A stretch of 64,000 bases of DNA from Ginglymostoma cirratum (Eukaryota). The stretch covers positions 1,863,941 through 1,927,940 of the forward strand of contig JAHRHZ010000085.1 of NCBI GenBank assembly GCA_024137785.1. The letters run 5' to 3'. Under the pieces are notes generated by a model that was not told the DNA's origin, ran no database searches, and saw only the letters and a program-made list of their open reading frames with translations. Below, in pieces: positions 17,690-61,690 of this stretch; position 1 is the stretch's first letter; each line of letters starts with the position of its first letter. A program made the position numbers and the translations under genes.

Positions 17690-20600
17690 GGGGAGGTGCT
17701 GGCCTGGTACTATTATTGCTAGACTATTAGCCCAGAGACTCAGCTAATGTTTTGGGGACCCAGGTTCAAATCACACACAGCACAATTCAATAAAATATGT
17801 GGAATTAAGAATCTACTAATGACAAATGAAATCATTGTCAAATGTCTGATGTCCTTCAGAGAAGGAAATCTGCCATCCTCAGCTAGTCTGGCCTACATGT
17901 GACTCCAGACCCACAGCAATGTGGTTGACTCCTAACTATGGCTTGGCAAACCATTCCGACGTACTAATTGCTGCAAAGTCTCAAAGATATGAAACTGGAC
18001 AGATCACCTGGCATCAACCTAGGCACCAGAAAAGACAACAGAAAAAACAGCCCTGTTGACCCTGCAAAGTCCTCCTTCCTAACATCTGGGGTTGAGTGCC
18101 AAAATTGGGAGAGCTGTCTCATAGACTAGTCAAGCAACAGCCTGACATAGTCATGCTTGCGGAATTTACATCTTACAGACAATGTCCCAGACACCACCAT
18201 CACCCATCCTTGGATATGTCCTGACCCAGCAGCAGGACAGACACAGCAGAGGTGGCATCACAGTGCTGAAGAATCAGGATGGAGTTTCCCTGGGAGTCTT
18301 CAACATTGACTCTAAGCCCCATGAAGTCTCATTGGTTCAGGATAAACATGGGCAAGGAAACTTTCTGGTGATGATACCATCCTCCCTTGGCTGATGAATA
18401 GCGACTCCTCCATGTTGAACAACACTTGGAAGATGCACTGAGGATGGCAAGGGCACAAAATGTACTCTGGGTGAGGGATTTCAGTGTTCACCACCAAGAG
18501 TGGCTTAGTAGCAGTCCAGCTGATTGAGCTGGTCGAGTCCTCAAGCACATAGCTACTAGACTGGATCTGCAGCAGGAGTTGAGGGAATCAACAGGAGGGA
18601 AAAGTATATATACCTCATCCTTGCCAATCTGGCAACTTTAGACGCATCTGTCCCGGACAGTATCGGTAAGAATGACCACCGCACAGTACATGTAGAGAAG
18701 AAGTCCTGCCTTCATATTTAGAATAACCATTCTGTTGTCTGGCAGTTTCACCATGCTAAATGGGACAGACTTCAAACAGATCTAGCAACTCAAGAATGAG
18801 CATCCATGAGGCACTGTGGGTCATCAACAGCAGCAGAATTTTACTCCAGCACAATTTGCAATCTCATAGCCTAGCATATTCCCAAATCAACCATTGCCAC
18901 CAAGCCAAGGGATCAGCCATAGTTCAATGCAGAGTGCAGAAAGGCATGCCAGGAGCAGCACCAGGCATACCTGAAAATGTGGTGTCAACCTGGTGAAGCC
19001 ACCAAACAGGACTACTTGCATGCCAAACAGCATAAGCAGCAAGTGATAGACAGAGTTAAGTGAACCCGGAACCAACGAATCAGATCTAAACTCTGCAGCC
19101 CTGCCACATCCAGTTGTGAATGGTGGTGGACAATTAAACAAATCACTGCAGGAGGAGGCTCCACAAATATCCCCATCTTCAATGGTGGAAGAGCCCAGCA
19201 CATCAGTGCAAAAGACAAGGCTGAACCACTGACAGCAATCTTCAGCAATAAATACCAAGTGGACTATTCGTCTCGGCCTCCTCCAGTGGTCCGCATCATA
19301 ACAGATGCCAGTCTTCAGCCAAGTTAATTCACTCCAAATGGAGACACTGGACACGGCAAAGGCTACAGATCCTGACAACATTCTGGCAATAGTACTGATG
19401 ACTTGAGCTCCAGAACTTACCATTCCCCTAGCCGAGCTCTTCCAGTACAGTAACAACACTGGCATCTACTCAACAATGTGCATAAAAAGCAGGAGAAATC
19501 CAACCCAACCAGTTGATCATCCCATCAGTCTAATCTTGATCATCAGCACAGTGATGGAAGGTCACATCACAGTTCTATCAAGTAGCACTTGCTCAGCCAT
19601 AACCTGATGAGTGATACCCAGTTTGATTCTGCTCAGCTCCTGGCTTCATTATAATTTTGGCTCAAACAGGGACAAAAGAACTCAATTCCAGGGGTGAAGT
19701 GAGACTGACATCACTTGAAATCAAAGCCACATTTGACCAACTGTGGCACTAAGGAGCCCTAGCAAAACTGGAATCATTGAGTATTGGGACAAACTCTCCA
19801 CTGGTTGGAGTTTTATCTGAAACATAGGAAGATGGCCATGGTTGCTGGAGGTCAGTCATCTCAGATCCAGGATATCTCTGCAGGAGTTCCTCAGGGTAGT
19901 GTCCTCAGGCCAACTATCTTCAGCTGCTTCATCAAGGAGTTTCGCTCCATCATAGGGTCAGAGTTGGAGATGTTCACCAATGACTGCAGAGTGTTCAGCA
20001 CCATTCGCAACTCCTCAGATACTGAAGCAGTCCATGTTCAATTGCAACAAAATCTGGACAATATCCAGGCTTGGGATGACAGGTGGCAAGTAACATTTGT
20101 GCCAAACAAATGCCAGGCAATGACCATCACCAATAAGAGACAAATCTGACCACCGATCCTTGACATTCAATGGTGTTACCATCACTGCATCCTCCACTAT
20201 CAACATCCTGGGGGTTACCATTGACCAGAAACTCAACTGACTCACCACATAAACACAGTGGGTACATGAACAGGCCAGAGGCTAGGAATACTGTGGTGAG
20301 TAACTCACCTCCTGATTTCCTAAAGCCTGTCCACCAACTGCAAAGCACAAGTCAGGAGTGTGATGGAATACTCCCCACTTACCTAGATAGCAGCAGCACC
20401 AACAACATGCAGCAAGTTTGACACCATCCAGGACAAAGCAGCCAGCTTGATTGGCACTGCATGCACAAGCATCCACTCCCTCTACCACCAACGTGCAGAA
20501 TCAACAGTGTGTACTATTAACAAAATGCACTGCAGAAATTCACCAAAGATTCTCAAACAGCACCTTCCAAACCCTCAACCATTTCCATTTGATTTGAATC

Positions 20601-38639: not shown

Positions 38640-41290
38640 AAAAAATCATTTGAACAACCAAAGTGTGGCTGATCAGTTCTGATATGCTGTCAGCATTGTG
38701 GAATCTATTACACAATCTGTTGATAGATATGTGGCTTAAATGGTGAGAAATCAGAGCTTATGAACGTAAATCATTAAGAAAAGATAGTGAAGGCAACAAT
38801 AAGGAGGCAGGGTGGCAATACTGATTGTGGGAAAAAAGTTATATTATTGGAGAGAAGTGATAGATGAAGGAAAGCATCTATTTTGTTTATGTTGAGAAGC
38901 AAAACAGGCGTGATCATGCTACTGGTTATTTTATCAAACTTTGAATATTGAGAGAATGAAAGAAGGAGAGGTGCTAAGCTGCAGGGAAACCAAAGCGATA
39001 TGCAGGAGTGGTGTTATTGAGACTTTAACTTCCTAAATATTGCTTGGGATAATATAAGACTAAACCGTTAGAAGGGGAAGAAATTTTTGAAATATACTCA
39101 GGAAGACCTCCTTAACTAGTATGCTATAGCCCAACAAGAGAATGGGTATTGCTGGATCTAGATCCTGGGAAATGAGGTAGTCTAAGGGGACAAAGAGCCT
39201 GTGAGAAAATAATTGGATAAGAATGATCACCATATCATAAGGCTTATTTCAGAAGATATCTAATCTCTATGCAAACAGAAGGGACCTCCGGAAAACATGA
39301 CCAAAGACTGACAAGAAGAACTGTAAAGTGACAATGGTAAGAAAACAATACATTATTCTTCAGGAAGAGATTGTTCATGTGAAGGCTACACAAATTCCAA
39401 CCAGTGCAAAAATTAGGGGGACCAAAAACAGCATTCCTTATTTGTTGAGGAAGTTTGAGATTATGATGCAAAATGAAATGAATATATGATTCATGCCAAA
39501 TAAATTCTTCAAGGGAGAACCAGGTCAAAAGCAATAGATTGGAAGTGGACATAAAGTGGAAATGGTGCTGCAAGGAGCTAGTACGAAAATCAAATCAGAG
39601 TCAGCAAAATGGGAAACTAACACCTTAAAAAGAATATGCAGATAGTAAGATATGGTTGACACTAAGACAGTGAGGTTAGTTTAGTTAATGAATAATTTGT
39701 CCGGACAGAGGAGCAATCTGTCAGTTGAAGTGGAGAAGTTGGAATCCATTGATAGGATGAAAGCAAGCGTGTGAAGGTATTAGAAATGCTGTCCAGTCTT
39801 AGGGTTTATAAATCATCTGGACCAAATCTTTTGTGACCCTAGTTGCAAAAGGAAATGGGAATGGAGATATGGCACAGATGTGAGAGGGTAGAGAGTGGCA
39901 AATGCATGAAAATGGTGGCAGGATAAACTTAGAAACTATTGACCCCTTCATGTAACGTCACTAAGTAGGTGTGTTTGAGAAGTAATTATCAAGGAAATGA
40001 ACAGGTATTGCTGACAAACCGGGGGTTCAGGCATGGGTAGGAGCAGCGTTGCTGATTATTAGTGATAGCCCACACTGATCAGCAAATGACAGATCATGTT
40101 TGAAAACCTGTCTGGAGTTTTGATGGAGCCACAGAGAAAATTGAACAAATGAATATAGTGGATATTGAATAAAAATGCATTCTACAAATTACCACATAAC
40201 GACATTAATGCAACTGAAGCTCTTGGATTGTCCATTCGGATTTATTTTTTAAAAAATGGCTTAATAAATCATGGTAAATAGTTAATTGAAAAATTGCAGA
40301 ATTGACTAAAATTCTTTTCCATAAGGAATAATTCCAGGGGCAACTGCTGTCTTTGTTATATTTTAAAAACTTGGACATTGGAATTCAGAAATGTTAAAAT
40401 TGAAAATGATACTAATTGTGGAGGAATGGTAGACAGGGTCAACGATAAAAATCATGATAGAAACATGACATGAATATAGTCCAGTACAACGGAGATGCAA
40501 ACAGTTGATGAAATGTAATATAGGGAAATGTGAAATTAAGCATTTTGGCAGCTGGTATATGGAGAAAAAATATAGATTCAGTGGCTCATTTCCAAGGAGT
40601 GCTCAAGGCCTGAGGAATGTAGACCATATCATGGATCTTTGACCATATTGAGATACACTGATGGAAGGTCTAGCCAAAAGTATTGAATTTTGAGTTTCAT
40701 ATAGAGGCATTGAGTACCAAAACCAAGAAGGAATGCTGAACATTTGCAAAGTCCTGATTAGGCCTCAACTAGAACATTGTGTACAATTCTGAGCATCACA
40801 CTAGGAAGATTGTGAAGATACTTGACATGGTGCAGGAAAGATCTGCCATATGCTACCAGCTTGGTTGATTCCAGTAGAAACGTTAGGTTAAACAAGCTGG
40901 TACTATTCTCGAGCAAAGGAGGTTGAGGGAAGATTTGATTGAATTCCAAAAGTTCACATGACTAGCTTGGAGAAGGTGAATGAGGAACACAAAATCCCAT
41001 TTGATAGCAAGGGGCAGATGGAAAGGATTTGAAGTTTGAGTAAACATTTCAGAGGCAAAATTTGGGGAGGTACTGTTATATGCAGCTATTTTTAGCAACC
41101 TGCAATTTGGTACACACAAGTGCAACGGAAGCAAAAATAATCAATGAATTCAAAATGAAATGAGTAATTAAACAAAATCTATCCCCTTAGACAAGGGGAT
41201 CGAGCAGGTGCTGGGATTGACTGGACTGCCACCCAAAGAAGGGACAAGGACTCATTGGGCCGAGTGGCCTTACTTTGTATGAGAAATGAC
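38640..41290 (+). mobile_element. Old, highly decayed CR1 LINE (EN+RT)
   Basis: Remnants of GDFNF, LDL.LGNE and ...LEHCVQF motifs in order. Confidence 0.7.
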
Positions 41291-41589
41291 TTTCTACTTG
41301 TGTCATTTTATGAAAGGAACTAAGGGTTTCTGAATTTCCCAATTTATAGCAGAGCATAATGTAGCAGAATTGAAATCTATAGATAGAAACACACTAAAAC
41401 TCATCGCTTGTTTCTCTGTCCTCCAGTCCCAACCATGAAACTCAAAACCAGTAAATTAGCCAAGGTCAGGATTTCGCTGAGAGATCATGCAAAATCAGCA
41501 GAATGACAGTTATTGAATTTTGGAATCAATCAGCAGTTAAAGAATTCACAGCAATTTGTATTTTTTAAATGACTTTTTATAAATTAAAT

Positions 41590-41734
41590 CTAACTGTTAT
41601 GAGTAATTGAAAAGAAAATCTTAATGAAGTATATTTTAAAACTTTGACCATCATATTCCACTGGAGGATGTTCACTGCATGGCTCTAACTTTCCACTGGT
41701 TACATTGTTTCTCTTGGTCGCTTCACTTCGACAC
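41590..41734 (-). CDS. Exon: cytoplasmic tail (R)CRSEATKRNNVTSGKLEPCSEHPPVEYDG..., to TAG at 41590 or spliced out at 41649
   Basis: Acceptor cctcacttttctttgagcag|G is phase 2 and matches the TM exon donor. The frame is open and hydrophilic. Confidence 0.65.
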
Positions 41735-44700
41735 CTGCTCAAAGAAAAGTGAGGAATCAGGATAACCCTTTCAAAATTTCTATGATTAGAAACCATTGAC
41801 AGTAATTTTGCAGTAACCCCTATCAAGGCAGTGACAATGACAGCAAGCTAATTCACAGAAAAAAATGGAGGGCAAGTAATTTAAACACACTTTTGATGTA
41901 AAAGAAATTTAAGTAGAGATTTAACAGGTAATTATAGACTGGTTATTCTGATATCAATAATAGGGAAATTGCTAGAGTCCATTGCAAAAGATTTAAAACA
42001 GCATACTTGGGAAGCAGTGAGAGATAGTAAGAACTGCTAATGCTGGAGTCAGAGATAATGCAGTGCGGAGCTGGAGGAACGCAGCAGGCCAGGCAGCATC
42101 AGAGGAGCAGGAAAGTTTACGTTTCGGGTCAGGACCCTTCTTCAGAAATGGGGCCCAGTGTGTTCCTCCAGCTTCGCACTACTTAGGAAACAGCGACAGG
42201 ATTGGACAGTTAGCATGGATTTACAAAACAGAAATTATGATTGAAAAAAAAAACTACTGGAACTTTTCCCAAGTGTAACTAGTAGAGTTAATAAGAGGAA
42301 GCCAGTGGATGTGCTTTACTTGGACTTTCAGAAGGCTTTCAGCAATGTCCCACATAAGGGGCTGGCATGTAATGTTAAAAAGCATGGATTTGGGGATAGT
42401 GTCTTGAGATGGATAGAAAACTAGTTAGCAGGTAAGAAACAAACAGTAAGAATAAATGGGTCTTTTTTTCTGAGTGGCAGGCTGTGTTGCAGTGTTCAGT
42501 GCTTTGACTCCAGCTATTCACATTTATAAATGATTTCAATGAGGGAACTAAAAGAGTGTACTGATGGAAATGGAGTGTAAACAGATACACTAGTAACATT
42601 CAGAAAGAAATTTGAGAAATCATTTAAAAGAAGTAAAGCAAATGCAACATTTCCGTGAAAGGCCAAGAGTATATGGACTTCTGTACCCACTATTTGAGAG
42701 TGATGACTTATTTGAAGACCTCAGTTCAAAGTGGGAAAAGATTTTTATTGAAGTGTAAATACTGGGAACTTGATAACAGAGCCAAGATTGGCTCCAAAAT
42801 TAATTAACAAATTTCATACCTTCTTTCCATGTTATAAGTCTACAAATGCTGTTGAACATTAGAATTCTGTCTTAAAACGCTTACCGAAAGAACCTATCTG
42901 ATGCAATATGGTCGAATATGATCACTGCTAGTATAATAATTACCAATATCCCCAATATGGATCGATAAATCAGGTGGCCAGGAATGACAACATGATAATC
43001 TGGAAAAGTATAAGGTAATCAGTGACTCACTCAGAACATACCATTTTAATAACATTTTGACAGCTGAAGAATCCAGAATCATCGTGTATTCAACTTGCTA
43101 GCCTCTAAACCCACTCATAGTTGCTCAAAGCAATATAGGCTATTGAATATTTTACAGTTTAAGTGCATTAGGGTACAATAAAAATGAATTTGTTTATTTG
43201 CCAAGAAATTGCCCACGCTTTGGTAAATGTTGTGTTTCTCCGTTATGCTTTTCCATATGAAAAATAAAATCCAAAGAACATAATTTAAAAGTCCTCTTTT
43301 CAAGCAATCATAGATGAATTAGCTATTTAGTATTATTGGATTCATTCACGGGATGCATGCATCGCTGGTTAGGACAGCATTTATTACCTTTCCTGAATTT
43401 GGCACTTGAGCAGTAGTTGGAAAGAGGGTGAGTTTATTAAAGCAAAATAAAAATCATGGGATATGGGCAACTGTATCTAGGCTAAAATATATTGTCCATC
43501 TCTAATTGCCCTGGAGAAGGTAATGATATTATCCATTTTTGATTCACTGCAATCTATGTCAGAGAGTCATAGGGTCATAGAGCTGTATAGCATGGAAACA
43601 GACCCTCTGGTCCAACTCATCCATGCCAACCTTATATCCTGAATTAACCTAGCCCCATTTCTCAGCATTTGGCCCATATCCCTCTCAATGCTATTCATGT
43701 ACCTGTCAATATGCTTTTTAAATGTTATAATTGGACCAGCCTCCACTGCTTCCTCTGGCAGCTCATTCCATACATGTACCAATCCCTCTGTGTGAAAAGG
43801 TTTCCCCTTGGGTCCCTTTTAAATCTTTCCCCTCTAACCTTGAACCTGGGCCTCTAGGTTTGAACTCACCTACCTTGGGGAAAAGATCTTGTCTATTGAC
43901 CCTATCCATGCCCCTCGTGATTTTACAAACCTCAAAAAGGTCACCCCTCAGCCTCTGAAACTTCAGGTAAAATAGCCCCAGTCTATTCAGCCTCTCCCTT
44001 TAACTCAAACCCTCCAACTCTGGCAACATCCCTGTAAATCTTTTCTGAATCCTTTAAGTTTCACAATATCCTTTCTATAGCAGGGAGATGAGAATTGTAC
44101 ACAGTATTCCAATAGTGGACTAATTAATGGCCTGTACAGCCACAACATGACCACCCAACTCCTACACTCAATGCATTGACCAATAAAGACAAGCATACCA
44201 AACGCCTTCTTCACAATTCTGCAACTCCACTTTCAATGAACTCTGAACCTGCACTCCATGGTCTCTTTGTTTGGCAACACTCCCCAGGACCTTACCATTA
44301 AGTGCATGTGATGTACAGTTTTGCACAATTCTGTTAGGGAGAGGGTTTCAGGATTTTGACACAGTAATGGTGAAGGAATAATGATACGGTTCCAGGACAG
44401 GATGGTGTGTGGCCTAGGTTGGAACTTGCAGGTGCTGGTGTTCCCATGTATCTACTGCCCTTGTGGTACTGATCATAGGTTTGTAAATTGCTGTCTAAGC
44501 AGCTTTGAGGAATACAAATAGGACATGTTCAAGAAACATATTTAGATGGCGTGCATGCTGAAACTGACCTGGTACTACTTCTTGATATCATATATTAAGA
44601 CTCCTATTTGTTTTGGTTATCTGTATTACCGATGTTACATTGGGGATTGTAAATAAATAGCCATAGCACCATTTAATATAAGAGCCAATTGAGTCTATTC

Positions 44701-47700
44701 TGCCAGTTAATACGATTATAGCTGGTACGGCAGTACTCAGCAACACTTTCTTGTCTTTTCTTCAACCCTTGATTTCCTCACTCAATAAAATGTATTGCAG
44801 TCTTGAATATATACAATGACATAGTCACTACAGCCATCTGCAGTGAGGAATTCCACAGATTCACTACCCTCAGAGAAGAAATTTCTCCTAATCTCTATTC
44901 TAACTAGATGACTCCTTACGCTGAGATTATGGGTTCTGATCCTAGACAGGGGGTCAGCAACCTTTCAGCATTCAACTTGTCAAGCCACCTAAGAATATTA
45001 TATGTTTCAAGAATGTTACCTGTCATTCTTCTAAACTCAAATGAGTACAGGCCCAACATACTCAACCTTCCCTATAAGAAAATTCCTCGATACCAGGATC
45101 ATCCTAATGAAGCTTCTCTGGACTGTGCCCCAGTGCCAGTATATCTTTACTTCAATAAAGAGAACAAAGCTGTTAATGGCATTCTAAATATGGTCTAACT
45201 AGTGCCTTTAAAAACCTTCCTATTCGTGGATCCCATTCTCTTTGACATAAAGGTCAACTATCCATTTATTTTCCTGATTACCTGCTGAACTTGTATGATA
45301 GGTTTGTGATTAATGCATGAGGACCCCAAATTGTTTGTGCTCCAGTTTTCTGCAAATTTTCTCCATTTCAATAATACTCCATTTTTCTTCCTGCCAAAGT
45401 GGAATATCTCACATTTTCCTACTTTACATTCCAACTGCTAAGTATTTCCCTCCTGCATATCCTGTCTATATCTCTGTAGCCTGTGGCACCTTGGTCACTT
45501 GCCTTCCCATTTATTTTTGTGTCATCTGCTAACGTGGTGATAGCACATTCACTGCACTCATCCAATTCATTTACATTCGAAATACTGTGGCCCGAGCATT
45601 GATGTCTAAGCACTCCACTAATTATAGGTTAAATATAGATTATAGATACCCTCTCTGTCCCAATTTTCTGTTTTCTGCTCGTTAGATAATTCCGTATCAA
45701 TATTAATATATTTCCTCTAATATAATGGACTCATCTTAGTAAGTTGTCTTATGTATGGTACCTTATTGAACACCTTTTTGAAATCCAAAAATATTACATT
45801 TATTGATTCCTCATTCTTGTTTATTAACCCCTGAAATGATTCTAGTAAATTTGAGAGCCATGAATTAGTCTTTATTTTATTAAATAATCCCTACAGTGTG
45901 GAAAGAAGCCACTGAGCCCTTTGAGTCTGCACCAACCCTCCAAACAGCATCCCACTCAAGCCTAGACTCACATTGTATCCCATAATCCTGCATTTACCAT
46001 GGCTAATCCACATAGCCTGCACACTATGGGGCAATTTAGCATGGTCAATCCACCTAACCTGTGCATCTTTGGACTGTTGGAGGAGACCAGAGCTCCTGGT
46101 AGAAACCCACACGGACAAGGGGAGAATGTGCAAACTCTACACGGACCGTCACCCAAGGCTGGAATCAAACCCAGGTCTCTGGTGCTGTGAGGCAACAAAG
46201 CTAACCACTGTGCTGACTTTGCTTACTTATGTTATGTATCTATAAATGATATGCAATTATATAATTTACAATAAGGCCTAATATTTTGCCAATGACAGAT
46301 ATGAAGCTAATTAGCCTATAATTACCTGATTCTTTTTGTTTCCCTTGCCCTTTGAAGCAAAGTGTTACAATGGCAGTTTTCCAATCCTATGGAACTTTTC
46401 CATTAGCTCTCTAGCAACTGTCTTTAATATACTAGCATACATCTGACAGGTTCTGTCAGCCTTTAACCGCATCAATTTCTCTTGGACCTATTGTCTCGTG
46501 ACAATTATTGTATTGATCTCTGCTGACTTTGTGTTTTTCACTTTGAAGAATACGCAATGACAGGGTTAAAGAAGCAACTCTGCTGAAGTGCACTTGTGGG
46601 ACAAAATGCTGTTATATGAACCAGCCTGGGTTTGAGTGGTAAAATTCTGAGAAGATCATAGTCCAATATTTATCCTTTAGGTACCCTGTGTTACAGCAAA
46701 AAGACCATTCCCTGCTCTGAGTGCTAGTTATGTTGTGGAGTGAGTTTGCAGATTAATTTCAATGCAGAGATTAAAAAAAGTAATGAATTTTGGTAGGAAG
46801 AACATGAAGAAACAATGTAGAAGAAAGGTACAATTCTCCAGGGTTGGAAGGCAGGAGGAACATTGATGTTTATATACATAAATCATGAAAGGACACAGGA
46901 CAAGTTAGAGAGCTATTAAAACAAAATTCGGTACTTAGTGCGTTATTGATTGATGCAGAGAGTATAAGAGCAAACAGTTTATGTTGAAAAATTATGAAAG
47001 GCAGCTTGGGTCTCAGCTAGAATACTGCATCCATTTCCAGTCACCACCTTCAGGAAGGATCTTAAGGAACTGACGAGGTTACAGAACCAATTCACAGGAT
47101 AGTTCTAGGGGTGAAAATTTCTCCAATGAATATCAATACAGGTAAGTTATCACTATTTAGCTTAAAGAAAGAAAAGCTGTGATTTAAGTGGATTGAGGTT
47201 TTCAAAATCACTTGTCAGAGTGGATAAGAAGGAACAGTTCCCATCTAAGAAAAAAATCAAGAACAAGAGGGAACAAATTTAAACTAAAAAGTAAAATAAG
47301 CAAAAATAGTGTGGTTTGGTTCCAGAAGGCACCGCACAGGTTAAGAATTTAGAATTTCACAATAGCTTCAAACAAGTAGCTGGGAAGGAAGAATGTGCAT
47401 GATTCTACGGAGAAGACAGGGAAGTGGCATTCAATGTGTTCCTCACACATGGGGTAGGCACCACGAGCCAAAAGGTGTTGTTCTGTGCTGCAAAGCATCT
47501 GTAATTTTGAGACTTCTGTGTGGTAACTTTCATATTTACATATTGATGAGAATTGGGATTAGATTATCAGGAATTTTATGATCCCTTGTAGAACATTGCA
47601 TCCATTGTCAACACATTATTAGAGGTTTGGTTGAAGATGTCACCGGGCATCATCCTCATTTGCTGATTCAATTAAAACTATGCCATATGTTGACTGAGTC

Positions 47701-50700
47701 ATGAAGGAGAATGTTAACTGGCCATTCTCCTTTAACATTTGAAATGTTCCAATTAGCTTACATCTTCACTGCTTTACGTTGATACAATCTAGCTCCCAGA
47801 GCTCAACTTAATCTGAAATGTCACATCTTTGATGCCATCAAACAAATCATATTTTGTGTCATACAAATTAATCAGGCAACATCTTCATATCATGTCTAAA
47901 TTCAGTCTATCCAGCAATGTGTATATGCTAGACATAAACACAGGGAACCCATTACCCCAGTTTAGAAATCTACTGTCCTTTTCTGAGTCTCTCCGACTTG
48001 CTGCCAAGACCATTTTAAACCTCTCTGAAGCAGAACACTAAGCAGATTTTCTATTCAGTTAATTTAAATGCATTTCTACATGACACACTTAAAATTTCAT
48101 TACAACCAGGAGAATTTTCATCTGATATTACTTTGCAAACAATAACATTCTCAGTGTGCTTCTTTTGCAAATCTGCTTCAATGTTTATATGTACCTAAAA
48201 TCATTTTATAGGCTCCTTCACCCCTAGCTTCCTTTATCATTCTATACAGTACAATATTGTTGCCTAAATTTAGATAGATGAATGCATCCTGCCACATTAT
48301 TCATGTTATGTTAAGCCTACATACAATTCTGAAATACTAGTGGATTTGAAAATTCCACAGTACTATCAAAATTAAATACAGAATACTCTTTATATTTTAT
48401 AAGTAACCCAATATCTGCAGTTACAGCTCAACCACTGCTGATTGAACCATATAAATGCATCACGTTTGTTGTAATTTTACCTACGTTGTTGACAATGTAA
48501 CTGCAATTTGCTGGAACAGTGATAGAAACATGATAGACTTGACAGGTGTAAACTGTGCCATGCTCAATTGGCTGTGCCTCTTCTATGGAACTGATGACTT
48601 CATACAGTCCGTCTGCCGTTTCCTGCTGTACAGTTGTAATTCCTGTCAGAATTCTGGTGCTGTTTTTATGCCAGGTAACATTAAATTCCTTCGGGTGAAA
48701 CTCAGCCGTTTGACACTGGAGTCTCAAAAAGGTAGATGAAGACTTGTGGAACGATGTAGAGACAATCTTCAGGGGTACAGGAGCAGCTAAATTTAAAAAA
48801 AAAATAAAAAAAAGAGGATATCTTTAACTGCTTTATTTCATTTACATTGCTCAGCAATCATGTCAAGGCTTTGTAGTTGGATCTTAGATCAATGTTTCAT
48901 GTGAATGGGTTCCAAAATAATTCATTCCTTGCTGTCCAGCACTGAGGTGAAAATGATTGCTCTTCACATTGTGGAAACAGTTACTAAGCAGGCCAAATCA
49001 AAACCTTAGTAAGCCAGAATAAGTCGGGTGGGTGTTGTCCTGAGGAAGAGTCACCCAACCTGGAACATTAACTGATTTTTTTTTCACACACTGAAGCTGC
49101 CAGACCTGCTTAATTTTTCCAGCTACTTCTGTTTTTGTGCTCGTTTAAACATTTTCCATCAGGAATTAAACCAATTTTCCTTTGAGGAGTCTTTGCGAGA
49201 CTTCCTTGGCCAATACATTCCAAATTTAGAGGGATTTCTGTTGATTTTCACAGGTATCTTCCTCATTCTCAACCATTCCTTTGTTGTATGCTGCAGTAAT
49301 GCAGTAACACCACTCGACGCATTTGTACTGAATGATATATATTTATTTGTTTGTTTTCCTTTTTTTGAAAGATGTTATGGCACTAATCCTAAATATTATA
49401 TGCCTACGTGTTAAATATTTTATTTTGGAATATATAAATAAGACTTTAAAAAATTAATTGATGATAAATCTCTCATGTGCTGTTTCAGAAGTGGAAACAT
49501 AGACATTGTAGTCAATCCTTCTCCCTCAACCACACGTGGTATGCCCTCTGTTTTTCCAGCATGTCCAGTTAACATGTTGCTGGATGTTAAGATCCAGCAA
49601 CAACTCCCGTAGATTGTGATGAGCAATATCATTCTTGCATTATTTTACGTTATTGAAGGTTCATTGCTCTAGCTTGTTCAATACTGAGTGTCTATGGAAC
49701 ATATGGTGAACTTTTAGTGTCATAGAGTCATGGTGCAGAAGGAGGCTATTCAGCCAATTATATCTGTACCAGCTGTATTCCCTAGTGCCAATTTTGTGGC
49801 CTGTCCCCATACCCCTATGCAAAAACGTCCAAACACATGTTTTGCACTCATGGGACGTGTGTGTCGCTGGCTGGCAATGACTTTATTGTCCATCCCTAGT
49901 TGCCTTTGAACTGATTGTCTCGATACAGCATTTCAGAGGGCAGTTAAAAGTCAACCACATTGTGTGAGTCTGGAGTCATATGGAGACCAAACCAAGCAGA
50001 TTTCCTTCTTTAGTCATTGGTGAATTAATCATGAGTGAACTCGATCGGTTTTTCCAATGATCGTCAATGGTTGCATTGTCATCAGTCAATTCTTAATTCT
50101 GGAGTTTTTGTTAACTGAATTCAAATTCCACCATCTGCCGTGGTGGGACTTGAACCCGGATCCCCAAAACATTAAGCTGAGCTTCTGGGTTAAAAATCTA
50201 GCAACAATACCACTGCCGCCAGGGCTTCACCTCCCCACACCTCTTGAATTTCTCAATTGAACTTGCCTCTGCTACATTTCCAGGCAGTGCGTTCCACACC
50301 CTAACAGCTTTCTGTGTGAATTTGATTTGTTTTCTCGCATCATCCTTGCTTCATTGGAGGCCACCTCATCCATGTGTCTTTTACTAACAGAAACAGCTTT
50401 GCCCTATCTATTCTGTCCAGCATACTCATGTTTTTGAAAATCTCAATCAGATCTCCTTTCAAACTTCTTCTCTCCAGAAAGAACAATCCCAACTTCTTCA
50501 AGCTATTCTCATAGCTGAAGTTTCTCATCCCTGGAACCATTTTAATAAATCATTCCTGCACTCTCTGCAATGCTTTCACATCATTCCGATAATGTGGACC
50601 ACAACTATACACACTACTCCAGATGAGATCTAATAAGTGTCTTGTACAATTTCAACATCACTTCCCTTTCTTGAGATAGCTTTGAAGAACTTAAATGATC

Positions 50701-53700
50701 TCTGAGTAGGAGATCTGCTGGGGACCAGAAACCATAATATGGTAGATGTTAGCTTTCTGTTTGAGATTGGGTAATTTGGATTGGAGCAATTGTGCCAAAC
50801 TTAAATAAGGGTAGTTAAATAGGAATGAGGGCTGAGTTGTTTAGTGTGGACTGGGAAAATAATTTAGCAGAAAAGATGGTTGAGGAGCAAAAGCAAATAT
50901 TTAAGAAAATAATTCATGACTCATCACAAAGATATCTCCCGTTAAGGAAAAAGGATTCTTGGAAGGACATTCAACAAGCATGGTTATCCAGGAAAGTTAA
51001 GGATGGTATCAATTTCAAAGAAAATACATACAATTTGACAAATCTTAGCTGCAAACCAGAGAATTAGGAATGATTTAAAAGCTGTAAAAGATACATAAAT
51101 AAAATTAAGAGTGATCAAATAAACTATGAGGGGAAATTAACAAGCAAGTAGTAAGAGCTTATTTAAATATATTTAAAAAAAGGACAAGGGATTCCAAAAT
51201 GAACACTAGCTCCATAAACAAAAAGGCAGGGTTGACAAAATAGGAATGAGGAATCTGTAAATAGCAAATTGAAAAAAAATACTATGCATCAATTTTCATA
51301 GCATAGGGCATGTGGTGGTGGTGAAAATAAACACAGCAATTACCATGAGTGTACTGGGGAACCAAATGAGGTTCAAGGCTGACGAATCCCCTGGACCTGA
51401 TGAGGTGTATCCAAGGATTTTAAAAGAAGTAAATGCATATATAATGGATAAATTGATAGGAATCCTTAGTTTCTGGTCAAGTCCCAATTAGAAAACTGCC
51501 AATGTAACATTCTTATTCAAAAAGGGAGGGAGACCAAAAAAAAAGGTTATGTCACCAAAGGTGTCCCACAGGGATTGGTGCTGGTTGCACTTTTGTTTGT
51601 CATTTATATAAATGAATTGGATGAAAATGTAGAAGGCATGGTTAATAAGTTAATGGATGGCACCAAGATTGGTGGTATAGTGGCCAGTGCAAACGTTATC
51701 TAAGATTACAAAGAGATCTTGATGAATTGGGTCAATGTGTTGATGAGTTACAGATGCAGTTTAACTTGGATAAATGTGAGGTATTGCATTTGGTAAAATA
51801 AACAAGGGCAGGAATTATACAATTATAAGTAGGGCCTTGGGAAGTGTTGTAGAACAGACAGACCTAGGGTTCAGGTACATATTTCTTTGAAGTTTGCATC
51901 ACATATAGATAGAGTGGTTAAGAAGTCATTTAGCATGCTTGCTTTCATTGCTCAGGCCTTTGAGTATAGAAGTTGGGACATTATATTGAGGTTGTACAGT
52001 ACATTGGGTGAGGCCTCTTCTGGAGTTCTGTGTCCAGTTCTGGTCACCCTGTTATAGGAAGGATATTATTAAGCTGGAGAGGGTTCAGAAGCAATTTACC
52101 AGTATGTTGCCAGGATGGAGGGCTTAAGTTATGGGGAGAGGCTGGATCAGCTGGGACTCTTTTTCACTGGAGCATAGGAGATTATGGGTGAGCTTATAGA
52201 AGTTTTTAAACCATGAGGGCTATTAAAGAGGTGGTTAGCAGGTGTCTTTTCCATGGGGTGGGGGATTTCAAGAGTAGGAGACATATTCTTAAGGTGAGGG
52301 GAGAGACATTTATAAAAGACATGAGCGGCAATTTGTTATATGCAGGGAGTGGTTCATGTGTGGAATGAGCATCCAGAGGAAGTGATGGATGCTGGTGCAG
52401 TTACATTGTTTGAAAGACATTTGGATAAGTACATGAATAAGAAATATTTGGAGGGAAGGGGCCAAATGCTGGCAAGGTGGAAATTGTTTAGTTCGGGATT
52501 GTGGTCAGCACGGACTGGTTTGACCGAAGGGTTTGTTTTCATACTGTATGACTGTATGACTCTATGACTGTATGACAGGCTGGTTAACTTAACAGCTGTT
52601 AATATGAAATGTTAGAGTCTATTTTATAACATATACTTATGACTTGGATGATGGAATTGTGTATTCCATTGCCAAGTTTGTTGATGGCACACAGACAGTA
52701 AGTGGGTAGGCCAGCGTTGAGGCTGACACTGTAAGTCTTTAGAGAGATACGAACAGGCTAAATTAATGGTCAAAAGCTTGACAGATGTGGACAATATGAG
52801 GTCATGCATGTCAGCCGGAAGAACAGAAGAGCTGAATATGAATTAAAGGGGGAAATATTACAGAAAGCTGCAACACAGAGTGATTTAGACATTCCTAGTG
52901 CATGGATCACAAACAGCTAACAACCTCCAATCAGTGATAGGAAAGGCAAATTGCATGATCTTATTTCAAAAAGAATGGGGCAAAGAAATAGGGACATTTT
53001 GTTAAAACTATACAAGTGAGACACATCTAAAACAGTTCATTTTCCCTTATCTAAGGAAAGATGTATTGGCATCGAAGACAGTTCAGAGAAGGTCCACTGA
53101 GATGTTTCCAGGTGTGGGGGATTTTAGTGTGAGGAAAGGTTGAGTAGTTCAGGTTTGCAATCATTTGAGTTTAGAAGAATAGTAGGCAACCTTGTTGAAA
53201 CAGATATGATTCGTAGAGACAGTTAAAGATTCAATGGCTTCCCAGAGCATTTGCTGGGAGGTTGTTTCTCATTGGGGTTTAATGTAGGACCAAAGGGCAT
53301 CATCTCAGAGCAAGGAGTCACTCACTTAAAACAGACAAGGAAACATTTATTGTATTAGAAGGTGGTAAATCCATGGAATTCTTTTTGGCAGATGACTGTT
53401 GAGAGTGACATAATTCAGAACTGACATGGAGAGATGTTTAATCAATGGTTAGTGGGATAAGGCAGGAAAATGAAGTTGAAATCAGATCAGCCATGATCTC
53501 ATTGAACGGAGGAACAGACTTGATGGACAGAATATCAAACATCTGCTCCTTCAACTTATGGTCTTATTTTGTGATTTTACCAAATGACCATCAAAGGCAC
53601 AAAAACAGAAGTTGCCGGGAAAGCTCAGCAGGTCTGGCAGCACCTGTGAAGAAAAAAATCAGAGATAATATTTCGGGTCCGGTGACCCTTCCTCAGAACT

Positions 53701-54629
53701 GTTCTGTGGCCTACTCCTGTTCCAATGTCTCCTAAACGCTCTACGTTTATCATTTTTGCGACACTTACTGTACACAAGAAGTCGGAATCCGGTTCCTTTC
53801 ACAACTGTTTGATGATGATATTTGATGACACAGTAATACATTCCGGCGTCGGCAACAGTCACATTCAAAACATGAAGGTAGGCGCCGCCTCTCCTCACAT
53901 CGAAACTTTTTCTGCCGTTGGCTTGCAGGAAAGTCTTGTTACCGTCTTTCCACCAGTAAGCGATTACCGCCAAATGATTAAGATGGAAAGGGAAAGGACA
54001 ACGAAACGTAACGTTTCCACCCCGGTGCGTCGTCGTTTGTGCCAGATTTCTGTCATATTCGCCAGAGCTGCACACAGAAACTATCAACAAAATACCCACA
54101 ATTAAATCACAGCCAGAGTGAAAAAAAAAGACACTGCTAAAAATGCTATTGTGCGTCCCCTCATTTGTTACGTTAGTGGTACTGTCTAACCATACAAGTT
54201 AAACTATCCTGCTAACGAATACGTTTCCTGATTAAAATAACTAATGTTGCTTTTCATGTTCACATCATTCTTTTCTGCAAAAAATGCTCAATATGAAAAC
54301 ACATTGATGAAACTACAGCAGCAGAAAGCTACTTCATGTAGGACATTGATTCCATACACAAGTTCTTGTTCAGTGAAGTTTAATAATTAACATAAATACT
54401 AAATGGAAAGGAGCAGTCAACGTTTCGGGTATCACACTTCTTCAGGGCTCCAGTGATAACCGAAACGTTGATTGTTCCTTTCCTCCAGATGCTGCCTGGC
54501 ATGCTGTGATTTTCTCCTCATTGTCTAACTGCATCTGCATTTTTTTTTGCCTGTAATGAAATCCAAATGCCTACCAGCGCACAAAACTTCCAGGAAAGGT
54601 AGGTTGCAAAGTAATCGGATCTTCAACAT
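41590..54629 (-). CDS. Spliced Ig-superfamily type I membrane receptor, leader-V(J)-C1-TM(Arg)-cytoplasmic, ~310 aa (NKp30/SIRP/VJC1-like); join(complement 54575-54629, 53769-54080, 48481-48786, 42885-42999, 41590-41734)
   Basis: Five exons of 55+312+306+115+145 = 933 nt join in one frame through GT-AG introns of phase 1,1,1,2. Canonical Ig V and C1 motifs and a hydrophobic TM are present. The extent of the last exon is the least certain part. Confidence 0.85.
42025..42180 (-). mobile_element. Short Penelope-derived element with intact hammerhead core
   Basis: Minus strand CTGAAGA-A-GGGTC-CT-GACCC-GAAA-CG-TA at ~42118-42145, with a short inverted arm. Confidence 0.75.
42885..42999 (-). CDS. 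Exon: short stalk plus transmembrane helix with N-terminal arginine
   Basis: Acceptor cttatacttttccag|AT and donor TTTCG|gtaagc, phase 1-2. Translation DYHVVIPGHLIYRSILGILVIIILAVIIFDHIASDRFF(R). Not present in the ORF track. Confidence 0.85.
43563..44305 (-). mobile_element. CR1 LINE 3' part (intron 3)
   Basis: ORFs 43567 and 44005 contain LLEYCVQF and VHVWNELPEE. Confidence 0.88.
44680..45850 (-). mobile_element. Older CR1 LINE fragment
   Basis: ORF 45419 TLADDTKI plus CR1 3' motifs. Confidence 0.75.
45885..46213 (-). mobile_element. HE1-type V-SINE
   Basis: HE1 consensus on the minus strand. Confidence 0.88.
48481..48786 (-). CDS. Exon: Ig C1-set domain
   Basis: Acceptor poly-T...tttag|CT and donor GTAG|gtaaaa, phase 1-1. 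Translation (T)APVPLKIV...LRLQCQTAEFHPKEFNVTWHKN...DGLYEVISSI...VYTCQVYHVSITVPANCSYIVNNV has the C1 hallmarks CxxxxFxPxxxxVxW and YxCxVxH. Confidence 0.93.
49843..50222 (-). mobile_element. SINE of the 24253 family
   Basis: Antisense head (gtgggacttgaacccgg B-box) and tail. Confidence 0.75.
50250..53570. mobile_element. Cluster of CR1 fragments in intron 2 (- 50250-50670; + 50680-51540, 51545-52575, 52640-53570)
   Basis: GVPQG, EFCVQFWSP and WNE.PEEV motifs, with a (tatgac)n tail at 52545-52576. Confidence 0.82.
53595..53700 (-). mobile_element. Short Penelope-derived hammerhead repeat ~70 nt downstream of the V exon
   Basis: Minus strand AGTT-CTGAGGA-A-GGGTC-ACCG-GACCC-GAAA-TA-TT. Confidence 0.7.
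53769..54080 (-). CDS. Exon: Ig V-type domain with J-like G strand
   Basis: Acceptor ttttgttgatag|TT and donor TACA|gtaagt, phase 1-1. Translation (V)SVCSSGEYDRNLAQTTTHRGGNVTFRCPFPF...AYWWKDG...AYLHVLNVTVADAGMYYCVIKYHHQTVVKGTGFRLLVY shows B-strand Cys, C-strand Trp, DxGxYYC and GxG. Confidence 0.93.
54575..54629 (-). CDS. Exon: signal peptide MLKIRLLCNLPFLEVLCA
   Basis: ATG at 54629 (ggaggatATG) with an in-frame TAG upstream. Ends G|gtaggc (phase 1), which matches the V exon acceptor. A strong acceptor (ttctatttccatttctag) at 54661 implies an upstream 5'UTR exon. Confidence 0.75.
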
Positions 54630-54911
54630 ATCCTCCAGCGGAAGCTGCTAACTCACAGAGCTAGAAATGGAAATAGAAACAATTAAAACAAAGTTTCCAG
54701 TGTCTACAGCATCGTTTCAGAGCTGTTCGTGATGTCACCTGGCTTCTGCTTGCAACTGTAGAGTCTTTTGGTAGAAATCCGGACAGGTAGTTGGGAAGGA
54801 GATACAAAAGCATTGCCTTTACCCATGAAAGCGAACTTAGTAGAACTGTACGTAAGCCACATCAATTCAATTGTTTCCTTCATCTGCCGAGAGGGTCGAT
54901 AATATTGCATG

Positions 54912-55178
54912 CGGGCGGCACGGTGGCTCAGTGGTTAGCATTACAGCCTCACAGCACCAGGGACCCGGGTTCGATTCCGGTGTCAGATGGCTGTCTGTGT
55001 GGAGTTTGCACATTGTCTGTGTGTCCAAAGATGTGTGGACTAGGTGCGTTGGCCATGCTAAACTGCCCGTAGTGTTCAGGGGTGTGTGGGTTATAGGGGG
55101 CTGGGTCTGGGTGGGATGCTCCAAGGGTCAGTGTGGGCTTGTTGGGCTGAAGGGCCTATTTCCCCATTGTTGGGATTC
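54912..55178 (+). mobile_element. HE1-type V-SINE just upstream of the leader exon
   Basis: gggcggcacggtggctcagtggttagc...ggttcgattcc with A and B boxes. Confidence 0.9.
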
Positions 55179-55424
55179 TTCTTCTACTCAATGTTCTGAT
55201 GGTAAGAACCAAGCTTGATCTTAACCTAACCCTCTTAAGTACCAGAGGGCCATACTGTAGGTGTGTTAGCTGTTGAAATCACGTCTGGAAAACTAGGAAG
55301 TCTCATAGATTACCAAACTTCAGAGAGCAGTCCCATTCACCACGGATGAGAAAGAGCTTCACATTTTTGTCTGTTATCTTTCAATAAGGTCGATGTTACC
55401 TTTGATCATCTACATTAGCTATTT

Positions 55425-57975
55425 AGAACTTAGAACATAGAACAATACAGCACAGTACAGGCCCTTCAGCCCACAATGTTGTGCCAAATTTTTACCATGA
55501 ACTTAGTGTCTATCTAACCTCCACCGCTACCTTATACTATCATCCACATGCCTATCTAATAGCCACTTAAATGCCCCGAATGAGGCCAACGCCACTACCC
55601 TCTTCGGCAATGCATTCCACACCCCTACCACTCTCTGAGTAAAGAACTAGTCTGACGTTTCCCTGAGATCTACCTCCTATCACTTTAAAACTATGTCCCC
55701 TTGTAAAAGCAACCTCCACCCTAGGAAAAAGTCTCTGGATGTCCGCTCTATCTATACTGCTGATCATTTTGTACACCTCTATCAAGTCACCTCTTATCCT
55801 TCGTTGTTCTAAAGAGAAAAGCCCTAGCTCTCTCAACCTTTCCTCGTAAGGCCTTTCCTCCATTCCAGGCAACATCCTGGTAAATCTCCTCTGCACCTTT
55901 TCAAACACTTCCACATCTTTCCTGTAATGAGGTGCCCAGAACTGGACACAATACTCCAGATGTGGCTGAACCTGGCTTTTGTATAGCTGGAGCAAAACTT
56001 CACGGCTCTTGAACTCAATCCCTCTATTAATGAAAGCTAACAAACCATACGCCTTCTTAACAACTCTATCCACCTGGGTGGCAGCTCTCAGGGAACTGTG
56101 AACATGAACCCCAAGAACTCTCTGCTCCTCCACACTGCCAAGAATCTTTCCGTTAACCCTGTATTCTACTTTCAAGTTTGTCCTTCCAAAGTGAATCACC
56201 TCACAATTTTCAGGGTTAAACTCCATCTGCCACTTCTCAGCCCAGTTCTGCATTCTATCAACGTCCCTTTGTAACCTAGAACAGCCCTCTGCACTGTCTA
56301 CAACGTGACCCACCTTCGTATCGTCCGCGAACTTGCTAATCCACCTTTCCATTCCTTCATCCAAATCATTTACAAAAATCACAAATAGAAGAAGACCCAG
56401 AACAGATCCTTGTGGTACCACTCTTAACTGAGCACCATGTTGAATATTTTCTGTCCACTATCACCCTTTGTCTTCGAAGGGTCAGCCATTTCTGAATCCA
56501 ATCTGCCACATTTCCTCCTATCCCTTGCCTCCTTACCTTCTGCATGAGCCTGCCATGGGGAACCTTATCAAACGCCTTACTTAAATCCATGTATACCACA
56601 TCCACTGCTCCACCTTCATCCATGTGTTTGGTCACCTCTTCAAAGAATTCAATAAGGTTTATGAGGCATGATCTCCCCCTCACAAATCCATGCTGACTAT
56701 CATGAATCAAACTGTGCCTTTCCAAGTGATCATAAATCCTGTCTCTCAGAGCCCTTTCCAATAATTTGCCCACCACTGACGTAAGACTAACTGGCCTATA
56801 ATTTCCGGGGTTATCCCTGTTCCCTTTTTTGAACAAGGGAATGATGTTTGCCTCTTTCCAATCTTCCGGCACTATACCCGTGGACAGTGAGGATGAAAAG
56901 ATCATTGCCAAAGGCCCTGCAATCTCGTCCCTCGCTTTCCATGGAATCCTTGGATAAATCCCATCAGGCCCGGGGGACGTATCTATCTTCAACTTCCTCA
57001 GAATTCCTAGCACATCTTCTATACTAACATCAACCTCCTCTCGCCTACCAGCCTGTTTCACACTGTCCTCCTCTACAACTAGGTGCCTTTCAGTTGTGAA
57101 TACCAAAGAAAAGTATTCATTAAGGACCTCTCCTATCTCTTTAGGCTCTGTGCACAAATTCCCTTTACAATCCTTGATCAGCCCTACCCTTTCTCTGGTC
57201 ATTCTCGTGTTCTGCAACATACATGTAAAAAACCTTGGAGTTTTCCGTCATCCTATCCGCCAAGGTTTTCTCATGGCCCCTTATAGCTCTCCCGAGCCCT
57301 TTCTTCAGCTCCTTCCTGGCTAACTTGTATCCCTCTGGATCCTTTTCTGTTCCTCTTTTCCTAAACCTTACATAAGCCTCCTTCTTCCTCTTAACTGTCG
57401 TTCGCCCTCTCTCGAGAACCATGCCTCCATCACTCGACTGCATCTTCTGTGCCTGCTAGGGACAAACGTGTCGAGCACATTCAGTATGCATTCCTTAAAC
57501 AATCTCCACATTTCTGTGGTGCTCTTCCCTGACAGCATCTGTTCCCAATTTATGTTACCCAGTTCTTGCCTAACTGAATTGTAAATACCCTTCCCCCAAT
57601 TATAAACTTTACCCTGCCGTATGTACCTATCCTTATCCATGACTATCGTGAAAGAAACAGAGTTATGATCGCTACCGCCAAAATGCTGTCCTACCAACAG
57701 GTCTAACACTTGGCCCGGTTCGTTGCCAAGTACCAAATCCAAAGTGGCCTCTCCTCGTGTTGGTCTATCTACATACTGTGTCGGGAATCCTTCCTGAACA
57801 CACTGGACAAAATCTGCTCCATCTAAACTATTACAACTAAAATGTTTCCAATCGGTATTTGGAAAGTTGAAGTCACCCATGACTACAACCCTGTGACTTC
57901 TGCACCTTTCCAGTATCTGTCTCCCAATCCGCTCCGCTGCTTCTCTGCAACTATTAAGGGGTCTGTAAAAAGAAC
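55425..57975 (-). mobile_element. Young CR1/HER1 LINE, most of ORF2 (EN to RT to 3' tail), frameshifted
   Basis: ORFs 57368 (MGDFNFP, LDLVLGNE), 56366 (SPGPDGI, NYRPVSLTS) and 55567 (PQGSVLG, KFADDT), with a (tagaaca)n tail. Confidence 0.95.
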
Positions 57976-58179
57976 CCTAATTTAGTTCGTATATCTGCAA
58001 TGATATCCACATTGGATTTAGGATCTAAGTAAGAACATACAACACAGACAGTTTCCCAAGCTTCACATAAATCAAGCCGTGTCAGTATGACCTGCTTTTC
58101 GCCTGGAGATGCAGTCTGTAAAATGTGAAGTAGTAGTTCCTACTGACCAAAGATACCAGGGAAATGAAATAAAAAATGA

Positions 58180-60444: not shown

Positions 60445-61690
60445 CAGGTCGTGTCTCACAAACCTCATTGAAATTTTTGAGAAGGTGACCAAGCAGGTGG
60501 ATGAGGGTAGGGCAGTTGACGTGGTGTACATGGACTTCAGTAAAGCCTTTGATAAGGTTCCACACGGTAGGCTATTGGAGAAAATGCGGAGGCATGGGAT
60601 TGAGGGAGATTGAGCAGTTTGGATTAGAAACTGGCTTTCTGAAAGAAGGCAACGAGTGGTGGTTGATGGAAAATATTCAGCCTAGAATCCGGTTACTAGT
60701 GGTGTGCCACAAGGATCTGTTTTGGGACCACTGCTGTTTGTCATTTTTATAAATGACTTGGACGCAGACATACGTGGATGGGTTAGTAAGTTTGCAGATG
60801 ACACTAAAGTCGGTGGAGTGGTGGACAGTGTGGAAGTATGTTGCAGGTTGCAGGGAGACTTGGATAAACTGCAGAATTGGGCTGAAAGGTGGCAAATGGA
60901 GTTCAATGCAGATAAATGTGAGGTGATGCACTTTGGGAAGAATAATAGGAAGGCAGAATACTGGGTCAATGGAAAGATTCTTGGTAGTGTGGATGTGCAG
61001 AGGGATCTTGGTGTCCAGGTACATAGATCCCTGAAAGTTGCCACCCAGGTTGATAGTGCTGTTAAGAAGGCATACGGTGTGTTAGGTTTCATTGGTAGAG
61101 GGATTGAGTTCCGGAGCCGGGATGTCATGCTGCAACTAGACAAAACGCTAGTGCGGCCTCACTTGGAATATTGCGTACAGTTCTGGTCGCCCCATTACAG
61201 GAAGGATGTAGAAGCATTGGAAAAGGTGCAGAGGAGATTTACCAGGATGTTGCCTGGTCTGGAGCGAAGGTCTTATGAGGAAAGGCTGAGGGACTTGGAT
61301 TGGAGAGAAGAAGGCTAAGAGGGGATTTAATAGAGACATACAAGATGATCAGAGGATTAGATAGGGTGGACAGTGAGAGTCTTTTTCCTAGGATGATGAC
61401 GTCGGCTTGTATGAGGAGGCATAGCTGCAAAGTGAGGGGTGATAGATTTAATACAGATGTCAGAGGCAGGTCCTTTACTCAGAGAGTGGTAAGGGTGTGG
61501 AATGACCTGCCTGCCAATGTAGTCAACTCAGCCACATTAGGGGCATTTAAACAGTCCTTGGATAAGCATATGGATGATGATGGAATAGTGTAGGTTAGAT
61601 GGGCTTCAAATTGGTTTCACAGGTTGGCGCAACATCGAGGGCCGAAGGGCCTGTTCTGCGCTGTATTGTTCTATGTTCTATGTTCTATGT
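60445..61690 (+). mobile_element. Young CR1/HER1 LINE RT to 3' end
   Basis: ORF 60704 PQGSVLGPLLFVIFINDLD...KFADDT, with a (ttctatg)n tail. Confidence 0.95.

Follow-up and report, generated by a model that had tools for sequence, protein, structure and literature searches.

The 64-kb stretch of Ginglymostoma cirratum DNA analysed here (the window) contains a gene that probably encodes an activating member of a SIRP-like family of paired receptors, predicted to signal through a CD3zeta/FcRgamma-type adaptor. What makes an activating receptor with an adaptor of this kind likely is the paired-receptor pattern in which an arginine in the transmembrane (TM) segment and ITIM-bearing tails are distributed over the related proteins of sharks and rays.

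Gene structure and predicted protein

Five exons on the minus strand (leader, V, C1, TM and tail) join in frame to encode a protein of 310 aa. The relevant features are:

54575..54629, minus strand: coding part of the leader (signal peptide) exon, ATG at 54629, phase-1 GT donor after 54575
53769..54080, minus strand: V exon, Pfam V-set E 6e-9, splice sites present
48481..48786, minus strand: C1-set exon, Pfam C1-set E 6e-11, phase 1/1
48428..48480, minus strand: reading frame that stays open beyond the C1 donor until a stop codon
42885..42999, minus strand: exon for a short stalk and the TM, 115 nt, phase 1 in, phase 2 out
42962..42964, minus strand: CGA codon of the TM arginine, at about TM position 4 (4-5)
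41590..41734, minus strand: cytoplasmic tail exon, 47 codons to the stop

The product is a type I membrane protein. It consists of one VJ-type V domain, one C1 domain, a TM with the arginine in its outer third and a short tail, in which no ITIM, ITSM or ITAM consensus was found. Its leader exon is the top-scoring match to the leaders of homologs in the whole window. The V domain is short, with 55 residues between the cysteine pair, is encoded in one exon and ends in a J-like G-T-x-x-x-L-x-V motif; a scan of positions 48300-54700 for recombination signal sequences (RSS) gave no match. The closest database protein stems from Chiloscyllium punctatum and is 87% identical in C1.

An additional cysteine (residue 217) is located near the end of C1, where among 11 aligned proteins it is common only to the Chiloscyllium ortholog. 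It falls within an N-glycosylation sequon and could provide the disulfide of a homodimer. Between residue 217 in C1 and residue 264 in the tail there is no cysteine and thus no stalk cysteine for a heterodimer disulfide. The tail exon contains a weak internal GT at 41648-41649 (minus strand), where the Chiloscyllium model P0001 takes another end that creates an ITIM-like hexamer; a contig from sequencing run X3 ends nearby at 41676. An alternative last exon near 41648-41649 is possible.

The transmembrane arginine

The TM exon (42999-42885) is bordered by a pyrimidine-rich AG acceptor and a GTAAG donor and encodes the short stalk, a hydrophobic segment and the start of the tail. Its translation contains LIYRSILGILVIIILAVIIF, exactly as given in the preliminary description, which had noted a TM with an arginine at the outer end of the helix; exon, sequence and arginine codon are confirmed. 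Over 39 aa, the exon product is 79% identical to that of the Chiloscyllium punctatum ortholog. The arginine is the single basic residue of the TM, which is free of lysine. As a control for chance, we searched all 2805 stop-to-stop pieces of the window for a 19-mer with a mean Kyte-Doolittle value of at least 2.5; five pieces contain one, and among these the TM exon alone matches the family profile (E 0.0012). Used by itself as a query, the exon found no sequence match in the PDB at E 10 and nothing above cut-off in Pfam. The CART signature of T cell receptor (TCR) TMs was judged by eye only.

The preliminary description had also proposed a check of the TM boundaries, and this places the arginine inside the best Kyte-Doolittle windows of 21 residues (position 5) and 23 residues (position 4). 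The best 19-residue window begins past the arginine, so that the boundary is slightly loose by hydropathy alone. In an AlphaFold model of the Chiloscyllium ortholog, the TM helix starts at residue 231, five residues before the arginine. The cytosolic Asp follows 17 residues on, with 16 residues in between. Family members without the arginine mostly carry Gly or Ala at this column, mostly 17 residues ahead of a cytosolic Lys/Arg, and in the usual case 3-9 uncharged residues precede it. The column should therefore lie within the membrane segment, as it is apolar in paralogs, has the same spacing and is preceded by uncharged residues. In the family alignment described below, the 17-residue spacing to the cytosolic stop residue is found in 11/20 rows with Arg and in 22/35 rows with Gly; the stop residue is Asp or Asn, not Lys/Arg, in 10/20 Arg rows, including the window protein.

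It is very unlikely that the arginine only snorkels at the outer edge of the membrane without a partner. The short distance of 16 residues to the cytosolic Asp and the exclusion of the arginine from the best 19-mer would agree with such an arrangement, but in the inhibitory paralogs this column holds apolar residues within the hydrophobic span, the arginine is mutually exclusive with multi-ITIM tails (see below) and its position runs contrary to the positive-inside rule, by which a basic residue on the outer membrane side is disfavoured.

A chondrichthyan family with arginine or ITIMs

By sequence comparison, the window gene is a member of a large chondrichthyan V-C1-TM family. A family profile search among 1.84 billion representatives yielded 84 proteins at E <= 1e-30, including some long ones with multiple Ig domains, and the best 150 matches were used. 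Proteins shorter than 500 aa were kept as rows, with the exception of 13 isoforms or duplicates, 15 that end after C1 or are without the C1 motif and 17 more that are without a TM by threshold, although two of the latter, P0037 and P0094, show an Arg TM on visual inspection. Gene models built automatically account for many of the rows, tails are truncated in some, and many of the representative matches stop after C1. Family names assigned automatically include SIRP-alpha-like, tapasin-related, NCR3 ligand-like and Ig lambda-like. A Callorhinchus protein matches the family at E 8e-54, which implies that the family spans cartilaginous fish. The V domains have 53-59 residues between the cysteines, a J-like G strand is present in 51/65 aligned rows, and an in-frame C1 exon between V and TM is also found in all homologs.

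Arginine occupies the TM column in 20 of the 77 TM-bearing rows. None of these 20 has two or more ITIM-like motifs in its tail, as opposed to 30/57 of the other rows (Fisher p 8e-6); at least one motif is found in 4/20 and 35/57 rows, respectively. When we restricted the comparison to tails longer than 20 aa and removed four non-family or broken rows, at least two motifs were counted in 0/13 Arg rows and 29/48 others (p 6e-5). The Arg rows with one ITIM-like hexamer, four in number, include one Chiloscyllium model and P0032 from Mustelus. In P0075 the arginine is shifted by one column, and the protein was scored as non-Arg in the count tables and as Arg in the tree. On these counts, the arginine and multi-ITIM tails are mutually exclusive in the family, which is the pattern of paired receptors: related ectodomains are combined with opposite signalling modules, and sister genes without Arg carry ITIM/ITSM-like tails. 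The motifs of the inhibitory tails are mostly LxYAxL and TxYAxI/L, and 24/57 non-Arg rows combine ITIM- and ITSM-type motifs. Ala at pY+1 has been described as favouring SHP1 (PMC8631942).

As to conservation of the arginine, which the preliminary description had proposed to examine in orthologs, the nearest homologs from sharks and rays retain the residue. It is present in P0001-P0004, P0010 and P0015-P0017; the homologs that have it come from Chiloscyllium, Scyliorhinus (two species), Heptranchias (two paralogs), Pristis, Hemitrygon and Mobula. Across the family, the named members with Arg represent 10 shark and ray genera. Within each of four species (of Heterodontus, Mobula, Heptranchias and Mustelus), members with Arg and members with ITIMs come from contigs of one and the same length, and accession numbers are close, as a tandem cluster would give. 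In the 64-kb window itself, neither a second family member nor an ITIM-tail exon was found.

Some family members deviate. The Arg column is occupied by Gln in P0053 and by Glu in P0056, and P0068 has a Lys three residues upstream of it. Among the ITIM-tailed models, P0176 and P0177 are without a TM exon and P0028 is without a C1 exon, which suggests exon skipping or model errors in inhibitory members.

Possible repeated gain of the arginine

In an ectodomain tree of 53 V-C1 rows, the window protein is part of a clade of 11 rows with 100/100 support (eight Arg, two ITIM and one short-tailed non-Arg row). The arginine is present in all eight non-ITIM full-TM members of this subfamily on the tree (window, Chiloscyllium, Scyliorhinus, two from Heptranchias, Pristis, Hemitrygon and Mobula), while the two Heterodontus proteins in the same clade combine Gly at this position with 2-4 ITIM-like motifs. 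Across the tree, Arg forms are mixed in among ITIM forms; the Arg label needs 11 changes, nine of them forced by well-supported branches. Nine independent pairs could be formed, in which the ITIM trait differs in the expected direction in 6.6 on average and in the opposite direction in none (median p 0.016); with tails longer than 20 aa only, 3.5 of five pairs point the same way and none the opposite (p 0.25, too few pairs for power).

The TM sequences themselves speak on the same point. The Arg TMs of P0042/P0170 are identical to that of the ITIM-bearing P0088 in 17-18/25 positions vs 8/25 for the next Arg type, and those of P0047 and P0095 share 14 identities with inhibitory TMs vs 8-9 with other Arg types. 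That some Arg TMs are nearer to inhibitory TMs than to other Arg TMs suggests repeated Gly-to-Arg gain at one TM column. Part of the Arg/ITIM pattern could also be due to paralogs having exchanged TM exons or ectodomains.

Relation to known receptor families

'SIRP-like' appears to be the best working label for the family, as SIRP gives the best links, followed closely by Ig light chains and B7-H6. SIRP-alpha is the top PDB match of the subfamily profile and the fourth with the wider profile; Ig light chains score equal or higher per V-C1 stretch with the shark profiles, and UrIg2 is also among the top matches. With a V-only profile, PD-L1 is the best single-domain match and SIRP is outside the top 60 PDB matches. 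A coelacanth (Latimeria) protein, P0180, has V-C1-TM architecture as well as ITIM- and ITSM-like motifs and matches the shark family in hhalign at E 4e-28. Its clear best PDB matches are SIRP-gamma/SIRP-alpha (73 bits vs 61), so that P0180 seems to bridge the shark family and the SIRPs. The nearest matches outside cartilaginous fish also include a coelacanth V-C1-C1 protein named SIRP-beta. The SIRP-named turtle protein P0121 was dropped as SIRP evidence, as it has no V domain, no normally placed TM and no ITIM tail.

Like SIRPs, the shark proteins have a V followed by a C1 domain (an arrangement documented for SIRP in PMC2785349), a J-like G strand, inhibitory and activating members, and tails of ITIM plus ITSM type. 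They differ in that they have one C1 domain, where SIRP has two, and a shorter V domain. The putative activating members also differ from SIRP-beta in carrying an outer Arg and no TM Lys; SIRP-beta1 uses a central TM Lys for DAP12.

With NKp30 and NKp46 the window protein shares the TM Arg, the short motif-free tail and the predicted use of CD3zeta/FcRgamma. Shark NCR3 genes have reportedly been described separately as a family of their own. NKp30, which also has a joined VJ domain (PMC11599192), consists of a single V domain in its ectodomain and NKp46 of two KIR/LILR-type Ig domains, in contrast to V-C1 in the shark gene. NKp30 was outside the top 60 of every PDB profile search and was also unlisted in the fold searches. 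The preliminary description had spoken of an NCR-like receptor with a TCR-like V-C1 ectodomain. The outer TM Arg and the V-C1 arrangement stand, but the two labels are not the best description of the lineage, as the best links are to SIRP. It had also called the combination unusual; V plus C1 occurs in SIRP and B7-H6 as well, and the unusual part is a SIRP-like V-C1 family in which the putative activating members carry an Arg instead of a central Lys.

LILRA/LILRB, FcalphaRI and GPVI resemble the window protein in the outer-TM Arg, and LILRs also in the pairing of Arg with ITIM forms, but these receptors of the leukocyte receptor complex (LRC) have C2-type domains. A 2014 survey reports that LRC homologs were not found in sharks (PMC4016189). 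The likeness to LRC receptors is convergent.

TCR chains, Ig light chains, UrIg/UrIg2 and PRARP have in common with the shark gene the VJ plus C1 arrangement and phase-1 domain exons. The shark gene differs from TCR and Ig genes in its single V exon, the lack of RSS and of a stalk Cys, and the single basic TM residue. A TCR chain was rejected because split V/J with RSS and the stalk Cys are both absent. UrIg is secreted and has three C1 domains, and UrIg2 has nine (PMC12227049); identity with UrIg was rejected because of this difference in architecture.

Structure comparison was based on the AlphaFold model of the Chiloscyllium ortholog from a 65-sequence alignment (pLDDT 85.6, pTM 0.67; the interdomain angle is uncertain); a model from 11 sequences (pLDDT 61) was not used. 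The model is an extended rod, different from Fab and TCR, and overlays with B7-H6 and PD-L2 at 2-3 A, with SIRP-gamma at 5.9 A and with Fab/TCR chains at 9-14 A. B7-H6 is the best low-rmsd structural match over the whole V plus C1 (Z 14.3, rmsd 3.3, 183 aligned), Foldseek ranked PD-L1 first, and ESM Atlas returned generic Ig clusters only. B7-H6 thus shares the V-C1-TM rod and the good structural overlay, but is a ligand and not a paired receptor. These matches, together with the preference of the V-only profile for PD-L1 and the automatic naming of several members as NCR3 ligand 1-like, would fit a family of expanded B7-H6-like ligands for shark NKp30-type receptors. We consider this scarcely probable: B7-H6, SIRP-gamma, Ig and TCR differ by no more than about 1-2 in structural Z, the profile searches by sequence do not have B7-H6 among their top 60, the Arg/ITIM pairing is a design of receptors, and most aligned rows have the J-like G strand.

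Sequencing contigs and a putative secreted form

Contigs of four sequencing runs were compared with positions 40500-55500. None of the runs is recorded as RNA, and the comparison carries no information on expression level or strand. Support for splicing comes from where the contig fits end and is a geometric inference. In run X2, the fit of one contig begins exactly at 54080, the start of the V exon, after 149 letters that do not fit, and the fit of a contig of run X1 stops at 53769, the end of the V exon, with 20 extra letters. In the region of the C1 acceptor, contig fits stop with 99 (X2) and 478 (X3) extra letters. Contig X3-19 fits to 42883 and carries 27 more letters beyond this point, and 41706 is where unspliced contigs stop in X2 as well as in X3; the ends at 42883 and 41706 are as the TM-to-tail junction predicts. 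A C1-to-TM junction was not seen among the contig pieces listed for the four runs, and repeats are abundant among the joints. The X3 contig that carries the TM exon runs on into the upstream intron. Contig depth in X3 steps from 13 to 45 at 42650-42710, inside the TM-tail intron, which may reflect a repeat or a cryptic exon.

Read-through of the C1 donor is predicted to give rise to a secreted V-C1 form of 241 aa. Contig X3-24 (1306 nt) begins with 478 non-fitting letters upstream and then runs unbroken from 48784 to 47957 across the C1 donor, which is also crossed by contig X1-6. The catshark model P0009 ends like the read-through form, and three catshark models (P0007-P0009) are without a TM. 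It is conceivable that the gene product is mainly a secreted or non-signalling decoy, with most transcripts reading through the C1 donor and the membrane form competing with the inhibitory siblings for ligand. The read-through contigs in X1 and X3, the missing C1-to-TM junction among the pieces listed, the TM-less catshark models and the many representative matches that stop after C1 all agree with this; we nevertheless judge it unlikely. Sharks and rays alike have conserved the TM exon with its Arg, which is intact here; the contig ends in X2 and X3 agree with splicing from TM to tail, and a decoy does not need the recurrent Arg. Moreover, contigs that cross introns may be pre-mRNA or DNA, and within 1 kb after the read-through stop there is no AATAAA or ATTAAA.

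Proposed mechanism and adaptor

For the activating receptor that we favour, the TM Arg would pair with the aspartate pair of an ITAM adaptor of the CD3zeta/FcRgamma type, and receptor and adaptor would assemble in the ER. Binding of a ligand by the V domain may then elicit ITAM-Syk/ZAP70 signalling and so oppose the inhibitory siblings, which would recruit SHP, probably as part of an arms race in which pathogens imitate the ligand of the inhibitory members.

The N-terminal Arg had been taken in the preliminary description as a signature of coupling to FcRgamma/CD3zeta, and the literature bears this out. In PMC1440944, an N-terminal TM Arg is the mark of Fc-gamma partners with a basic TM residue, at position 3 in FcalphaRI, and type I partners of DAP12 have a more central TM Lys; NKp46 and NKp30 combine a TM Arg with CD3zeta or FcRgamma (PMC6514059). 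The window gene has such an N-terminal Arg in a type I protein and a short tail without ITAM or ITIM.

Which adaptor is available in sharks bears on this assignment. The 2014 survey reports no FcRgamma in cartilaginous fish (PMC4016189). CD247 is present in the bamboo shark, where cd247 marks T cells (PMC11372145), and, with FcRgamma perhaps absent in sharks, the adaptor could be CD247. In the bamboo-shark single-cell marker table, which contains markers only, 'fcer1g' first occurs in the zebrafish and not in the shark sheet among the rows listed, and two C. plagiosum family loci are not among these rows. One supplementary file of the elephant-shark genome paper (PMC3964593) gave 0 matches for SIRP, FCER1G, CD247, TYROBP, NCR3 and ITIM. 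An activating receptor with another adaptor, either of the DAP10/DAP12 type or a novel one of sharks, would accord with the lack of FcRgamma in the survey and with the use of Arg together with DAP10/DAP12 by NKG2D and rodent Ly49 (PMC1440944). NKG2D and Ly49 are type II proteins, though, and the N-terminal Arg of a type I protein mismatches the central Asp of DAP12 (PMC1440944), which leaves this possibility with little probability.

Surroundings of the gene

No other host gene was recognised in the 64-kb window, flanking genes included, and no tRNA genes were found. Broken LINE-type pieces with Pfam RVT_1 and endonuclease matches are located at 55570-57976 (minus strand), 60686-61315, 8954-9457 and 19781-20146 (all plus strand), and most of the window consists of similar retrotransposon fragments and short repeats. 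A run of 100 N (assembly gap) at 16119-16218 lies inside a retrotransposon fragment. The highest hydropathy in the window belongs to a low-complexity Leu/Phe-rich open frame at 15091-15507 (minus strand), which is probably repeat-derived.

Significance

That an Arg recruits an ITAM adaptor and that receptors occur in activating and inhibitory pairs is textbook knowledge. We found no description of the family in the open-access literature, parts of which (papers on shark NCR3, on the origin of antigen receptors and on the evolution of B7-H6/NKp30) may cover some of it, as may work on chicken SIRP, PRARP and hagfish APAR. As far as checked, paired Arg/ITIM receptors are known and a chondrichthyan VJ-C1 version with Arg is apparently new. 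Little is known about the activating and inhibitory receptors of shark leukocytes, for which the VJ-C1 paired family provides a concrete candidate. It bears on the origins of SIRPs, on the role of a germline VJ-C1 receptor before rearrangement and on the onset of Arg coupling to zeta/gamma adaptors, and the putative recurrent Gly-to-Arg switch at one column could serve as a natural test for the origin of activating from inhibitory receptors.

A more far-reaching proposal, which we put forward tentatively and regard as rather doubtful in its entirety, is that sharks retain a large, non-rearranging VJ-C1 paired cluster near the ancestral SIRP state, in which Gly-to-Arg changes recur and which signals through CD3zeta if FcRgamma is absent. 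If true, this would give sharks a candidate receptor system for NK or T cells and be an extant germline VJ-C1 receptor coupled to CD3zeta, the very design that has been proposed for the pre-RAG antigen receptor.
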